In this document: positions 13,214 to 17,827 of the stretch, piece by piece
Layout: every line of letters begins with the position of its first letter
Position numbering within the stretch: position 1 is the first letter of the stretch
Assembly: GCA_034722435.1 (NCBI GenBank)
Contig: JAYENX010000011.1
Coordinates: 1-17,827 of the forward strand
Reading direction: 5' to 3'
Length of the DNA stretch: 17,827 bases
Origin: Nanobdellota archaeon
GTDB taxonomy: Archaea; Nanobdellota; Nanobdellia; Woesearchaeales; JAHWHD01
Notes under the pieces: model-generated
Told to the model about the DNA's origin: nothing
The model's input: only the letters and a program-made list of their open reading frames with translations
Databases searched by the model: none
Translations under genes and position numbers: made by a program

Positions 13214-15016
13214 TTAATATTTATTTTTAAGTTTTAGTCTTGGACATATGCCGAGTGTTTTGAACTCGTCAAGGATTAACTTGAAAGCATATGCAATTTC
13301 GATGTTACTTATTTCAACGTTTTCACCACAAATTGGGCAGTAACGTTTATTTTTGTACTCGTCATAAACAGCTATCATTCCGCATTCTTCACAAACTGGA
13401 ACAACTGTTTTGTCAGAGTCGAATCTTTCTTTAAGTAGTAATGAAGCACCGTGAGCTACAAAAGTGTCTTTCTCCATCTCTCCAAGTCTAAGACCTCCTT
13501 CTTTTGCACGACCTTCTGTTGGTTGTCTTGTTAGTAGCTGGATTGGACCTCTAGCTCTTGATTGTAGTTTGTTTGCAACCATGTGTTTAAGTTTGAGATA
13601 GTACATGTTACCTATGAAGATTTTAGCTTGAAGTTGTTCTCCGGTTTTTCCGTTATACAAAGTTTCAGTTCCATTTTCTTTAAAACCAAGGCTAAGAAGT
13701 TCTTTTCTGATATCTGCTTCTTTCTCTGTTTCGAAAAGAGTTCCGTCAATGAATCTTCCTGAAAGTGCACCAGTTTTTCCACCAATAAGTTCAATAAGGT
13801 GTGCAATAGTCATTCTTGAAGGAATACCGTGCGGTGAAAATAAAATGTCGGGTGTTACTCCTGTTGTAGTGAATGGCATATCAGTATCTTTAACAATTCT
13901 TGCAATGACCCCTTTTTGACCGTGTCTGGATGTAAATTTATCCCCAATCTCAGGAATTCTTTGGTCACGTACACGTACCTGGATAAGTTTGTTACCTTCT
14001 TCGTTCTCTGTTAAAAGTACAAAATCGACAATTCCTGCTTCTCCATGGTGCATTGATAAGGATGATTCTCTTCTAGTACTAGATGCAAGATTGTATTCGT
14101 CCATGTTGCTAAGGAATCTTGGAGGAGATGTTTTTCCAATGATAACATCTTCTTCTCCTACTACTGCTTCAGGATATACTATTCCGTCTTCTTCAAGGAA
14201 CCTATAATCTTGTTCACTTTTATACCCTTTAACTTCTTTATCGGGAATACCTACTTCATCAACTAGACCGCCAGTGTATCTTAGTTCTTCTGCGACTGCT
14301 GGTTTAAAGTATGTTGATCGTGACATACCTCTATCTATAGAGGATCTGTTAATAACAATAGCGTCTTCCATATTGTAGCCCTCGTAACTCATGATAGCAA
14401 CGATTATGTTTTGACCAAATGGATGTTTATCGTAATTAGATATCTTTGCCATAAGTGTTTGACATATTGGCATGTGCGGAGTTTGAAGTATATTAACGTC
14501 AGTATCAAGTCTCACGAAATAGTTTGCTGCATACATACCTAAAGCTTGTTTCTGATTTTTGGAACCTTGGTTAAGTCTAACGCTATGATTGAAATTTCCA
14601 AATGGAACTAATGAACCGCAAAGTCCTAGTATTGCCATAGGTGAAATTTCTAAATGTGTATGTTCTTCTGTTAAATCTTCGGGGAAAACTGCCACTAAAG
14701 CGTTTTCTTCTTCAGAAGCGTCAAGATATTCAATAACTCCTTGTTTAATCAGGTCGCTCCAAGTGATTTCGTTTTTTTCAAGTTGTTTAATGTGTTGTTC
14801 TGTGATTAATGGTTGACCTTCTTTAACGACAATGATTGGTCGTCTAGCTCTTCCTTTAGAAGATTCAATGTGAATTTCATTAGAGTCTTCTTTATAGAAT
14901 ATGTTTACGTTATGTGAAAGATTACCTTTTCTTCTTTCATCTTTGAAAGACTCTAAAAATATTTTAGGGTCTTCAACAGTTCCTATGAATTTGTAATTGA
15001 TATATACTTCTGCCAT
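13214..15016 (-). CDS. rpoB1: DNA-directed RNA polymerase subunit B' (Rpo2 C-terminal half)
   Basis: GYNMEDA, GDKFTSRHGQKG, NPH-like SPHGIPSRMT, LKHMV, GGLRLGEME, C-terminal CEEC..CPIC zinc motif; GGTGA SD. Confidence 0.99.
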   Translation of the reverse strand: MAEVYINYKFIGTVEDPKIFLESFKDERRKGNLSHNVNIFYKEDSNEIHIESSKGRARRPIIVVKEGQPLITEQHIKQLEKNEITWSDLIKQGVIEYLDASEEENALVAVFPEDLTEEHTHLEISPMAILGLCGSLVPFGNFNHSVRLNQGSKNQKQALGMYAANYFVRLDTDVNILQTPHMPICQTLMAKISNYDKHPFGQNIIVAIMSYEGYNMEDAIVINRSSIDRGMSRSTYFKPAVAEELRYTGGLVDEVGIPDKEVKGYKSEQDYRFLEEDGIVYPEAVVGEEDVIIGKTSPPRFLSNMDEYNLASSTRRESSLSMHHGEAGIVDFVLLTENEEGNKLIQVRVRDQRIPEIGDKFTSRHGQKGVIARIVKDTDMPFTTTGVTPDILFSPHGIPSRMTIAHLIELIGGKTGALSGRFIDGTLFETEKEADIRKELLSLGFKENGTETLYNGKTGEQLQAKIFIGNMYYLKLKHMVANKLQSRARGPIQLLTRQPTEGRAKEGGLRLGEMEKDTFVAHGASLLLKERFDSDKTVVPVCEECGMIAVYDEYKNKRYCPICGENVEISNIEIAYAFKLILDEFKTLGICPRLKLKNKY

Positions 15017-15023
15017 TGAATTT

Positions 15024-16511
15024 TCACCTAACGCTCTTTAATCCTAAATTTTTGATATTTTTCATGATTTCTTCTTCATTTGTTTTTTGAGATATACTGC
15101 AAAGTAATGCGAGATTTTTTCTTAAACCAATATTTGTACCTTCTGGAGTTTCAACTGGACAAAGTCTGCCCCAATGTGTTGAGTGAAGTTCTCTTGCTTC
15201 AAAGTTTTCTTGTGAAGTGCTAAGAGGTGAAACTACTCTTTGAAGATGTGATAATGTTTGAAGATGGTTAAGTCTAGCAATTCTTTGACTGATACCTTTT
15301 CTTCCGCCAACCCAGTTACCTGTTGCCATAGATGAGTACATTCTTGAAGTAAGAAGTTTCTCTCTGATAATTACTTTTATTGAAGGGAATTTACCTCTCT
15401 TAACAATTCTTTGGAAATTGTATAAAAGGTCTCCAATAAGTACTTTGATATTTACTCTTAGTAAGTCTGCTAAAAGGTCGCCTGAAAGTTTAAGACGTTT
15501 ATTCATATAATGGTCTTTATCGTCAACCTTAATTTCTTTAGTTGAGACCATAATAAATTTCTTAAGGATTTTGCATAAATTGTATGCTTTGAAAATTCTA
15601 TCTTCTTGACTTATGCCTAAATGAGGAATAAGATATTTGTCAAGGATTTCTTGCATCCTTTCAACTCTAATTTCTTTAGCTTGTGTGATGCCTATCTTTT
15701 TTGCAATATAATCTAAAGCGTCTTCTTCTGTTTTAATATCTACAAATTCGAATAAGTTTACAAATATGTCGTCATATTGTTTTTCTTCGGAGATGAATCT
15801 CATAATTTCTTCATCTTTTAATAATCCTAAAGCTTTAATAACGACTATTAAAGGAATTCTTTTTACTCTTGTGAAAGTAAGATAGAAAATACCGTCTTTC
15901 ATTTTTTCAACTGTGTGCGGTATCTTATATGAACCACGTTCAGAGAACAATCTGCCTACATATTCTGATACCCCGATTGAAGCTTTGCTAACAAGAAGTT
16001 TGTTTGCTGCAAGATCTTCAATATTGATGAGTACTTTTTCTGAACCATTAATAATGAAGTAACCACCTGGATCATCAGGATCTTCGTTTTTCTCAATAAG
16101 GTCGTCTCTGGATAATTTGTAAAGGTGACAATATTTAGATTTGAGCATGATTGGCAAGTTTCCTATTTGTGTAGTGAAACTTTCTCTTTGAACTCCGTTA
16201 ATATGTGCAGAAACTTCTATGAACATAGGTGCAGAGTATGTTATTTTTCTTAATCGTGCTTCTGAAGGGTAGATAGGCCTTTTTGAACCATCTGCTTCAG
16301 TAATTTCTGGTTTTTGTACCCATACTTTGTCAAGTTTTATTTTGAATTCGTCTATATCTTGAGGAATGATGGTTGGTTCAACTTCTTTATTTTCATCAAT
16401 GATTTTTTGAAGTTCTTCTTCAACAAGGTTGTTGAATGATTCAATATCTGAATCTATAAATACTTGTTCTTCGAAATGTTTTTTGATAAGAACTTGTCCA
16501 GGCTTATACAT
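15024..16511 (-). CDS. rpoB2: DNA-directed RNA polymerase subunit B'' (Rpo2 N-terminal half)
   Basis: PSEARLRKITYSAP, DPGGYFIINGSEKV, HWGRLCPVETPEG. ATG at 16511 is preferred over the start at 16520 because the GAGGTG SD is correctly spaced; overlaps the rpoH 3' end. Confidence 0.98.
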   Translation of the reverse strand: MYKPGQVLIKKHFEEQVFIDSDIESFNNLVEEELQKIIDENKEVEPTIIPQDIDEFKIKLDKVWVQKPEITEADGSKRPIYPSEARLRKITYSAPMFIEVSAHINGVQRESFTTQIGNLPIMLKSKYCHLYKLSRDDLIEKNEDPDDPGGYFIINGSEKVLINIEDLAANKLLVSKASIGVSEYVGRLFSERGSYKIPHTVEKMKDGIFYLTFTRVKRIPLIVVIKALGLLKDEEIMRFISEEKQYDDIFVNLFEFVDIKTEEDALDYIAKKIGITQAKEIRVERMQEILDKYLIPHLGISQEDRIFKAYNLCKILKKFIMVSTKEIKVDDKDHYMNKRLKLSGDLLADLLRVNIKVLIGDLLYNFQRIVKRGKFPSIKVIIREKLLTSRMYSSMATGNWVGGRKGISQRIARLNHLQTLSHLQRVVSPLSTSQENFEARELHSTHWGRLCPVETPEGTNIGLRKNLALLCSISQKTNEEEIMKNIKNLGLKSVR

Positions 16512-16758
16512 TGATAACACCTCTATAATATTCTGAAGTAATTGCAGTTACACTTTCTCTCACTATTTTCACAACATCTCCTTCTTTAACTTCCATACCT
16601 GCAAGTGAAGGATCGATAAGGTTTATTTTAGGAAGTTCATTGAATGTTATTTTATATTTAGAAAAGAGGTTTTTTCTCTCTTTATCACTTAAAATTGAGT
16701 GTTTAGGTTTTAATATGTGATGTTTGATGACCAATGCCGCTTTTGTTTTTCTTGCCAT
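16504..16758 (-). CDS. rpoH: DNA-directed RNA polymerase subunit H (Rpo5), 84 aa
   Basis: HILKPKH..LPKI..DP..GDVVKIVRESVTA...YYR; GAGGGG SD before ATG 16758. The ORF-track extension to 16848 runs into tRNA-Lys and is an artefact. Confidence 0.95.
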   Translation of the reverse strand: MARKTKAALVIKHHILKPKHSILSDKERKNLFSKYKITFNELPKINLIDPSLAGMEVKEGDVVKIVRESVTAITSEYYRGVINV

Positions 16759-16804
16759 ATAGTTCCCCTCTGTAATATGAAATAATGAAATGGGCCGGAC
16801 GGGA

Positions 16805-16818
16805 TTTTCGTTTGAAAC
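16805..16818 (-). other. tRNA-Lys T-loop intron (59/60), 14 nt
   Basis: GTTTCAAACGAAAA; central helix UUCG/CGAA; bulges AA^G and AA^U. Confidence 0.9.
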
Positions 16819-16840
16819 TTCGAACCCGCGACCACTCGAT

Positions 16841-16853
16841 TTCTTCAATGAAT
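16841..16853 (-). other. tRNA-Lys anticodon intron (37/38), 13 nt
   Basis: ATTCATTGAAGAA; central helix CUUU/GAAG; bulges UA^A and AA^A. Confidence 0.9.
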
Positions 16854-16871
16854 TAAAAGTCGAGTGCTCTA

Positions 16872-16891
16872 ATGCCCGAAGTTTATCTTCT
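16872..16891 (-). other. tRNA-Lys D-loop intron (19/20), 20 nt
   Basis: AGAAGATAAACTTCGGGCAT; central helix GCCU/GGGC; outer helix GAAG/CUUC; bulges GG^A and AU^U. Confidence 0.88.
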
Positions 16892-16927
16892 CCAGGCTGA
16901 GCTACCGGCCCTGTGTTGAGTACAAGG

Positions 16928-16946
16928 CCAAATCAAAATGATTTGG
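16928..16946. repeat. Perfect 8-bp inverted repeat (CCAAATCA-AAA-TGATTTGG) in the tRNA-Asp/tRNA-Lys spacer
   Basis: Read directly; extends by two G-C pairs with a 1-nt bulge. Confidence 0.85.
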
Positions 16947-16970
16947 ACCAGGCTAACGCCCTGGCCGGGA

Positions 16971-16992
16971 CTTTCAGGATCATCACAATCTT
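16971..16992 (-). other. tRNA-Asp T-loop intron (59/60), 22 nt
   Basis: AAGATTGTGATGATCCTGAAAG; central helix UUCA/UGAA; bulges AA^A and AG^U; inner GAUU/GAUC helix. Confidence 0.9.
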
Positions 16993-17032
16993 TTTGAACC
17001 CGGGTCGAAGCCTCGACAGGGCTTCATGATAG

Positions 17033-17052
17033 TTCTCGCATTTAAGCAATGT
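17033..17052 (-). other. tRNA-Asp D-loop intron (20/20a), 20 nt
   Basis: ACATTGCTTAAATGCGAGAA; central helix CUCG/CGAG; outer helix CAUU/AAUG; bulges GC^A and AA^C. Confidence 0.9.
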
Positions 17053-17269
17053 GCCGAGCTACACTACCAGGGCATAAAACATCTTTTTTGTGAGTCGATA
17101 AGCTATAAGAAGCTTATTTAACCCATAAGAAAGATATTTCTAGCATGTTTCGTTGAGAAAAAGTAGTGATATATAAATGTTTCTATTCTTTTCATATTAA
17201 TACATATATTCTATAGATTTTCTAGACTTTATAGTTTATAAATTTTGTGGAAAACTAGGTGGAAAATAA

Positions 17270-17277
17270 TATAAATA
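17270..17277 (+). promoter_or_regulatory. Putative BRE/TATA (GGAAAA...TATAAATA) for the downstream hypothetical gene
   Basis: TATA lies 21-28 nt upstream of ATG 17298, with a purine-rich BRE-like run at 17261-17266. Confidence 0.5.
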
Positions 17278-17297
17278 TATTCTTATTTCTAAATTAT

Positions 17298-17654
17298 ATG
17301 GTAGATGCTAATTATTTTACAAGTGCAAAGTCTTCTTTTTTTTTAGGTTGTGGGTATGGATTTGATAGGTTGATGCATAAACCGGTATTAAATATATATG
17401 TTCCATCTGAAGATATGATTATTCAGACAAGTCATTGTTTGGATCCTTTTGAGAGGGATAGACTACTGTATGATGTTATTATTGGTGACACAGCTACTGA
17501 ATATTTTAAGAAATTTGGGAATGATACAACTAAGTTCGATGTTTCTGAAAATTTAATTAAGTGGGCGAAACAATATCATGCCGCTGCACGGGATTCGCCT
17601 CAAGAGCTTTCTGATTTATTTGAAACAACACCCTTAACTATATTATCTGATTGA
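17298..17654 (+). CDS. Hypothetical protein (start 17298 preferred over GTG 17259)
   Basis: Open frame with protein-like composition; the upstream extension overlaps the TATA box. No family recognised. Confidence 0.7.
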   Translation: MVDANYFTSAKSSFFLGCGYGFDRLMHKPVLNIYVPSEDMIIQTSHCLDPFERDRLLYDVIIGDTATEYFKKFGNDTTKFDVSENLIKWAKQYHAAARDSPQELSDLFETTPLTILSD

Positions 17655-17714: not shown

Positions 17715-17827
17715 TCCCCGCCGCCGGACTTGAACCAGCAACCTTGCGGTATCGGCTGACTTGTTGTCATAGTGTGTTTGATAACAATCTCAAACAAGTG
17801 ATATAATCTACAGCCGCACGCTCTACC
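17715..17827 (-). tRNA. tRNA-Tyr(GUA), 5'-truncated by the window, with a 57-nt intron at 37/38 (17751-17807)
   Basis: GGTAGAGCG-TGCGG-CTGTAG^ACCGCA-AGGTT-GCTGG-TTCAAGT-CCGGC-GGCGGGG-A. G72 with A73 matches the archaeal Tyr identity (C1:G72, A73); anticodon at 17809-17811. Confidence 0.92.

Follow-up and report, generated by a model that had tools for sequence, protein, structure and literature searches.

Can a tRNA-Asp(GUC) gene that is interrupted in its D loop and again in its T loop give a working tRNA in an archaeon that has only the simplest type of the splicing enzyme EndA? The question is raised by a locus close to one end of the 17,827-nt stretch of DNA analysed here (the window), which is one whole contig of a 1.30-Mb genome of 33% GC, 94.5% complete and assembled in 60 contigs. 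The host is a DPANN archaeon of the Woesearchaeota type, and the closest homologs of its EndA carry the names Woesearchaeota or Nanoarchaeota.

The BHB motif at which EndA acts (bulge, helix, bulge) has a central helix, H, of 4 bp and a 3-nt bulge 3' of each of its strands; the cut lies between the second and third bases of a bulge. Here we describe the parts of the tRNA-Asp gene, fix them by comparison with orthologs, set out the anatomy of the two splice motifs, and consider what enzyme would have to cut them. Non-canonical and multiple BHB introns are themselves known from archaea (Marck and Grosjean, 2003; Sugahara et al., 2008; reviewed in PMC4090602 and PMC4033280). Sites 20/21 and 59/60 both figure among the recorded non-canonical positions of tRNA introns (PMC4090602), and tRNAs with multiple introns are well described in Thermoproteales (PMC4033280). 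The tRNA-Asp gene is in itself one more example of this known archaeal habit; what is unusual is that only the simplest EndA type is present.

Gene structure

The pre-tRNA begins with the acceptor strand GCCCUGG, followed by UA, the D-stem strand GUGU and a D loop that is broken after C20; the anticodon arm, AAGCC-CUGUCGA-GGCUU, is uninterrupted; and the T stem CCGGG leads into a T loop, UUCAAA, that is broken before U60, after which come CCCGG, CCAGGGC and the discriminator G, with no encoded CCA (Table 1). Taking both introns out leaves a 75-nt RNA that ARAGORN folds as tRNA-Asp(GTC). Its acceptor stem has 7 bp and its anticodon stem 5 bp, the anticodon loop is CUGUCGA, the variable region has 4 nt, the T loop reads UUCAAAU, and all cloverleaf pairs are intact. 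Excision of either insert alone gave no tRNA-Asp call, and the unspliced gene gave no tRNA call of any kind with ARAGORN, with or without its intron mode, or with Rfam, at the gathering score or at E<=10. A preliminary description of this locus had placed the gene at 16957-17073, with an intact anticodon loop that lacks a 37/38 intron and with inserts at 20/20a and 59/60, and all of this holds: the gene lies there on the minus strand, its spliced product is tRNA-Asp, and the gaps of orthologs coincide with the inserts.

Under a strict motif filter, removal of these two inserts is the sole solution. Under loose BHB thresholds the alternative excisions that ARAGORN accepts number 19 here and reach 193 in one ortholog, so that acceptance by this program alone counts as weak evidence. 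It was dropped as a criterion, and the junctions were chosen by identity to intron-less orthologs.

Table 1. Predicted parts of the tRNA-Asp(GUC) gene, neighbouring and related features, and intron patterns of orthologous tRNA-Asp genes. Positions are those of the window unless a contig or locus is named.
Feature	Position or genomes	Strand	Description
tRNA-Asp(GUC), whole gene	16957..17073	minus	117-nt pre-tRNA, acceptor 5' end to discriminator G73
Exon 1	17053..17073	minus	5' strands of acceptor and D stem, then the D loop as far as C20 (tRNA positions 1-20)
Intron 1	17033..17052	minus	20 nt, D loop, between 20 and 20a; pre-tRNA nt 22-41
Exon 2	16993..17032	minus	Positions 20a-59: remaining D arm, anticodon arm, variable region, T-stem 5' strand, T loop U54-A59
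Intron 2	16971..16992	minus	22 nt, T loop, between 59 and 60; pre-tRNA nt 82-103
Exon 3	16957..16970	minus	U60, T-stem 3' strand, acceptor 3' strand, G73
tRNA-Lys(UUU) gene	16791-16911	minus	45 nt downstream of tRNA-Asp; three introns, of 20 nt (D loop), 13 nt (anticodon loop) and 14 nt (T loop)
Asp-Lys spacer hairpin	16926-16949	minus	About 10 bp, one bulge, -12.3 kcal/mol, z = -2.7
rpoH and split rpoB	13214-16758	minus	Directly follow the two tRNA genes, same strand: rpoH (84 aa), B'' (498 aa), B' (600 aa)
131-aa ORF	17259-17654	plus	Between tRNA-Asp and tRNA-Tyr; no Pfam match
tRNA-Tyr(GUA), 3' part	17715..17827	minus	About 60-nt 37/38 intron; 5' end lost at contig end
Related T-loop introns	G000 C16:4552-4594, C25:7071-7114, C36:29319-29364, C46:6388-6431		59/60 introns of 43-46 nt at four different tRNA loci
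EndA gene	G000:C58:50280-50933		Sole EndA gene; 175 aa; PF02778 and PF01974 (N- and C-terminal domains)
EndA gene (L001)	L001:1474-2001	minus	Divergently adjoins the 322-aa ORF
322-aa ORF	L001:1979-2947	plus	HxHxDH-type motif SHWHGDH
tRNA-Asp orthologs, no intron	11/30 genomes		L013, L015-L019, L021, L022, L027, L028, L030
tRNA-Asp orthologs, D loop only	2/30 genomes		L009, L012
tRNA-Asp orthologs, T loop only	8/30 genomes		L008, L011, L014, L020, L023-L025, L031
tRNA-Asp orthologs, D and T	4/30 genomes		Own, L006, L007, L010
tRNA-Asp orthologs, 37/38 and T	3/30 genomes		L029, L032, L034
tRNA-Asp orthologs, all three junctions	2/30 genomes		L026, L033

Comparison with orthologs

It is the comparison with orthologs that gives the predicted gene structure its decisive support. 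A BLAST search with the 117-nt gene matched 34 of 40 relatives, and the ends of exon 2, at query positions 42 and 81, were very often the points at which the matches began and stopped. Orthologous tRNA-Asp genes were extracted from 29 relatives, giving 30 genomes with our own, and in the alignment (A1) the gaps of the intron-less genes fall exactly on both predicted introns. Exon 1 is invariant or nearly so in this alignment, exons 1 and 2 are directly joined in the intron-less genes L016 and L027 and also in L008, and exon 3 differs from its counterparts mostly by no or one mismatch, with up to three in one of them. The predicted mature tRNA is identical to the uninterrupted L016 gene at 73 of 75 positions; L016 scores 57.3 bits with the Rfam tRNA model (cut-off 29), and three other intron-less orthologs score 48.5-57.5 bits.

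A survey of tRNA-Asp introns in relatives, which the preliminary description had asked for, shows that across these 30 genomes inserts come and go at 20/20a, 37/38 and 59/60. Eleven genes have no intron; the T-loop junction is occupied in 17, the D-loop junction in eight and the 37/38 junction in five. T-loop introns range from 17 to 113 nt or more, and the D-loop intron, missing in 22 of the 30, is 17-36 nt long in its carriers. The three junctions are fixed across genomes, and the intron sequences are unrelated between genomes while the helices are retained. The patterns of L014, L024 and L031 (single long T-loop introns) and of L026 and L033 (three introns) were read by eye. Precursors with three introns measure 156 nt in L026 (genome G004) and 218 nt in L033 (genome G028). 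An unpublished genome of the same genus (G001; L006) has D- and T-loop introns of 20 and 29 nt.

Anatomy of the splice motifs

In the motif of intron 1 the central helix pairs CUCG (C16-G19, 17058..17055) with CGAG (17038..17035), 4/4 pairs, and the bulges are GC|A and AA|C, where the bar marks the cut. The inner helix h', CAUU/AAUG, has 4 bp and a 5-nt loop, and the outer helix h consists of the single pair G15.U20b, which is followed by an A14.A21 mismatch and then by the D stem, so that the geometry is H4 h'4 h1. In the motif of intron 2 the central helix pairs UUCA (U54-A57, 16998..16995) with UGAA (16976..16973), again 4/4, and the bulges are AA|A and AG|U. Here the outer helix is the 5-bp T stem, and an A.C mismatch precedes the inner helix, in which GAUU/GAUC forms four pairs, or five with a terminal G.U; the geometry is H4 h'0 h5, with 5 pairs in h' when one mismatch is passed over.

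Both introns thus have two 3-nt bulges, and cleavage after the second base of each bulge would give the correct tRNA, with a D loop (AGCUCGGCCUA) and a T loop (UUCAAAU) that are those of intron-less orthologs. The helices named in the preliminary description, CUCG/CGAG and CAUU/AAUG in the D loop and UUCA/UGAA in the T loop, are all present, but its designation of the D-loop motif as a strict hBHBh' motif has to be given up on account of the outer helix of one G.U pair. If both flanking helices are to have at least 2 bp and to adjoin the bulges, neither intron qualifies as strict. Both are mildly relaxed BHB forms, each with one weak flank.

When the introns were shuffled, a complete central helix (4/4) arose at the junction in 0.8% of trials for the D loop and 3.3% for the T loop, and a central helix of 4 bp together with an inner helix of at least 4 bp in 0.01%. 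The MFE fold of the precursor, at -41.0 kcal/mol, lacks the BHB helices, and the conformer that combines them with the cloverleaf, at -33.4 kcal/mol, lies 7.6 kcal/mol above it; thermodynamic folding alone therefore lends the motifs no support.

Genomic setting

Interruption of this style is not confined to tRNA-Asp. A genome-wide search anchored on acceptor stem and T arm gave 25 clean tRNA genes, and in 17 of them 59/60 is occupied by an insert. Each of these 17 has a central helix of 4/4 Watson-Crick pairs, in which R57 pairs with an intron base, as G-C in 11 and as A-U in six, and the 3' bulge is mostly AG|U. Inserts near position 20 of the D loop occur in about nine tRNA genes. The tRNA-Asp gene is one instance of a genome-wide intron habit.

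Four T-loop introns at four different tRNA loci (Table 1) share 70-82% mutual identity (UAGYUGACG...GGAGCUUCGAAAG), which suggests an intron family that has passed from one tRNA gene to another at this site, as has been proposed for Thermoproteales.

The tandem order of tRNA-Asp and tRNA-Lys is found again in many relatives. The hairpin in the spacer between the two may be a processing or pausing element; at least one orthologous Asp-Lys spacer (L011) likewise contains a hairpin. An ORF listed at 16504-16848 overlaps tRNA-Lys only by way of an upstream TTG; the real start of rpoH is the ATG at 16758.

Is there a second tRNA-Asp gene?

An intron-less duplicate of tRNA-Asp(GUC), which the preliminary description had named as an observation that would tell against it, was looked for in the 94.5%-complete assembly by four routes, and none turned up. 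ARAGORN with introns found 15 tRNAs in the whole genome, none of them for Asp, and Infernal found ten above its cut-off, none of them at another Asp locus. With the tRNA-Asp gene as a BLAST query, the second match in the genome was only tRNA-Glu(UUC), which itself has a 59/60 intron, and a pattern for the GUC anticodon arm, run on the whole genome, met this locus alone in a tRNA context. The tRNA at the contig end, which was considered as a second tRNA-Asp, proved to be tRNA-Tyr(GUA). In a genome of this completeness and in this number of contigs, a hidden intron-less copy keeps a small probability. Since the assembly holds no intron-less duplicate and the one gene found carries both inserts, tRNA-Asp relies on splicing in the D arm and in the T arm.

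The splicing enzyme

The 175-residue product of the sole EndA gene has its best matches among solved structures in the catalytic subunit of the N. equitans enzyme (3iey_A, 126.7 bits) and in the alpha4 enzyme of M. jannaschii (113.6 bits). With the latter (PDB 1a79) it is collinear over residues 7-175 (169 residues) with one 1-residue gap. Its Tyr (in FRVY), its His (in DHAKW) and its RK(R/K)LL stretch align with the Tyr, the His and RKKLL of the M. jannaschii protein, and Tyr, His and Lys align with residues of the N. equitans enzyme too; as in the M. jannaschii enzyme, these three are taken to be the catalytic triad. Near the C-terminus an acidic stretch, VDDESDVTYY, has its counterpart in VDADGDIVYY of the M. 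jannaschii alignment and is the sole hint at the level of sequence that the protein is a homotetramer, as which it probably works.

A second EndA paralog or beta subunit was not found by phmmer or by the family profile on six-frame ORFs. A weak phmmer match on C30 (E=0.067) was considered as a structural beta subunit and rejected, since it is by sequence a PUA-type protein and the family profile found nothing. Exactly one significant EndA match is likewise seen in 39 of 41 genomes of the order, two single-contig genomes among them. The protein is not a three-unit fusion, and its alignment with the loop-less M. jannaschii EndA, with a net difference of one residue, leaves no place for an L1/CSL, L2/ASL or L3 insert; an L3 loop was also sought against N. 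equitans, and at the site of the lysine-rich insert of that alpha subunit the protein is 6 residues shorter. Of the 120 closest homologs, 119 have a spacer of 9 aa (DRGVKPGED-like) between Tyr and His, and in M. jannaschii it is just as long. With one gene, two domains, no paralog and Tyr, His and Lys in place, the enzyme is by its predicted architecture of the alpha4 type, and no recognised broad-specificity type of EndA is encoded in the assembled genome. RtcB is encoded (566 bits). The 322-aa ORF that divergently adjoins the EndA gene looks to us like an RNase Z, a tRNA 3'-end nuclease of the metallo-beta-lactamase kind.

The preliminary description had set the gene against the narrow alpha2 and alpha4 enzymes of euryarchaea and concluded that it depends on a broad-specificity splicing enzyme. 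The first frame does not suit the host, a DPANN and not a euryarchaeal lineage; the enzyme is collinear with the narrow alpha4 EndA of M. jannaschii. As to the second, splicing in both arms is needed, no duplicate having turned up in the assembly, whereas the predicted proteins offer a single insert-less EndA, no beta subunit and none of the recognised broad types. The simple alpha-type EndA would thus have to cope with the D- and T-loop motifs. One possibility, to which we give a little under even odds, is that the insert-less single alpha-type EndA of Woesearchaeales is itself the broad-specificity enzyme and, with neither a beta subunit nor L1, L2 or L3 loops, cuts BHB motifs of D and T loops in which one flanking helix is missing.

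Proposed processing and rival readings

We propose that the gene, the sole one found for tRNA-Asp(GUC), is functional, that its two BHB introns are cut by EndA and that its exons are joined by RtcB, and we put the probability of this reading at about 0.9. The 117-nt precursor would be transcribed, probably jointly with the tRNA-Lys that follows it, and each insert would pair with neighbouring exon bases to form a BHB motif with its 4-bp central helix and 3-nt bulges. In the D-loop motif the bases C16-G19 of the D loop would provide one strand of the central helix; in the T-loop motif the conserved U54-U55-C56-R57 would do so, with the T stem as outer helix. EndA would then cleave after the second base of each bulge, RtcB would ligate the three exons to the 75-nt tRNA, and CCA would be added after ligation.

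Against such splicing one may set that the motifs are relaxed, that the MFE fold lacks the BHB helices and that this class of EndA has been reported as narrow. The fold, which disfavours the BHB helices, and the reported narrowness of the enzyme would also fit inserts that EndA does not remove at all, and which are kept as enlarged D and T loops or lost in some other way, for example by self-splicing. At 20 and 22 nt, however, they fall far below the size of a group I or II ribozyme; loops enlarged by the inserts would disrupt the elbow formed by G18/G19 and U55/C56 as well as the fold of the T loop; the same tRNA exists without inserts in related genomes; and the covariation of R57 with the intron, 17/17 in this genome, is sensible only if the BHB helix forms. 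We regard retention or loss by another route as extremely unlikely. A silent or decaying pseudogene with junk inserts, beside a working intron-less tRNA-Asp in the unassembled 5% of the genome, is very unlikely, even though the genome is incomplete and standard tRNA finders miss the gene, for the three exons are identical or nearly so to those of functional orthologs and keep every cloverleaf pair, both inserts hold precise BHB geometry at their junctions, most tRNA genes of the genome are interrupted in the same style, the order of tRNA-Asp and tRNA-Lys is conserved, and the unpublished genome of the same genus likewise has a two-intron gene, with no other Asp gene found in it.

A further reading concerns the T-loop intron alone, which might have a second role as a K-turn or box C/D-like element and might bind L7Ae. 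Within its 22 nt it does contain GUGAUGA (16986..16980) and CUGA (16977..16974), 2 nt apart. Yet no orthologous T-loop intron has the motif, that of the same genus included, CUGA overlaps the UGAA strand that the BHB motif needs, the C box overlaps the inner helix, and since the genome has dozens of introns, it is no surprise that a single RUGAUGA should arise by chance. We have rejected this reading as extremely unlikely, the boxes being unconserved and probably due to chance. The account we retain is excision of both introns by EndA and joining by RtcB.

Implications and comparison with known systems

For annotation, the consequence of these interruptions is that standard tools find only 10-15 tRNA genes here, and genomes of this kind look short of tRNAs, tRNA-Asp included. 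The tRNA-Asp precursor offers a clean natural substrate: it has two motifs, both of them non-canonical, and no second copy of the gene was found. How a loop-less, single-subunit EndA deals with relaxed motifs matters for the accepted connection of EndA architecture with the range of substrates cut. If the alpha-type enzyme is indeed broad, either there is a further, unrecognised route to relaxed recognition or the rule that alpha4 means narrow fails. The presence or absence of inserts at three sites of a single orthologous tRNA within one order is also good material on intron gain and loss.

The introns resemble other archaeal non-canonical introns in that they are short, would be spliced by proteins, are defined by BHB motifs, occur several to a gene and seem to have spread between tRNA genes. 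They differ in that 59/60 is occupied in 17 of the 25 anchor-found tRNA genes, and the setting differs from that of Thermoproteales in that the host is not a crenarchaeon and the EndA is of a single alpha type, not a heterotetramer with a Crenarchaea-specific loop.

Among DPANN, the epsilon2 EndA of ARMAN-2 (Ca. Micrarchaeum) and the (alpha-beta)2 EndA of N. equitans cut relaxed BHB motifs (PMC3239211; PMC3488258; PMC2761253), and these hosts too have tRNA introns at non-canonical sites; the EndA described here has no three-unit fusion, no beta partner and no specific loop, and it retains the N-terminal domain PF02778 in contrast to the alpha subunit of N. equitans, whose lysine-rich insert was defined in PMC3239211. 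A 2025 paper on the structure of ARMAN-2 EndA mentions neither DPANN nor Woesearchaeota and apparently does not treat the alpha4 enzymes of DPANN (PMC12397907).

The nearest precedent is Kaneta et al. (2018, NAR; PMC5829648), who describe alpha4-type EndAs in several DPANN lineages, with one Woesearchaeota genome in the set. In their account, DPANN alpha4 EndAs go with more disrupted tRNA genes and with tRNA sets that could not be predicted in full, and the association with disrupted genes is ascribed to an 'L3' insert resembling the lysine-rich loop in the alpha subunit of N. equitans. Homotetrameric alpha4 EndAs, of which that of M. jannaschii is the example with a solved structure, reportedly cut strict BHB motifs only (PMC5829648). 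The present EndA differs in lacking the L3 insert, its spacer being 6 residues shorter than that of N. equitans. In domain order and in the alignment of Tyr, His and the Lys-rich stretch it is like the M. jannaschii enzyme (PDB 1a79), and where it would part from the M. jannaschii type of alpha4 enzyme is in being needed for D- and T-loop motifs that are each short of one good flank.
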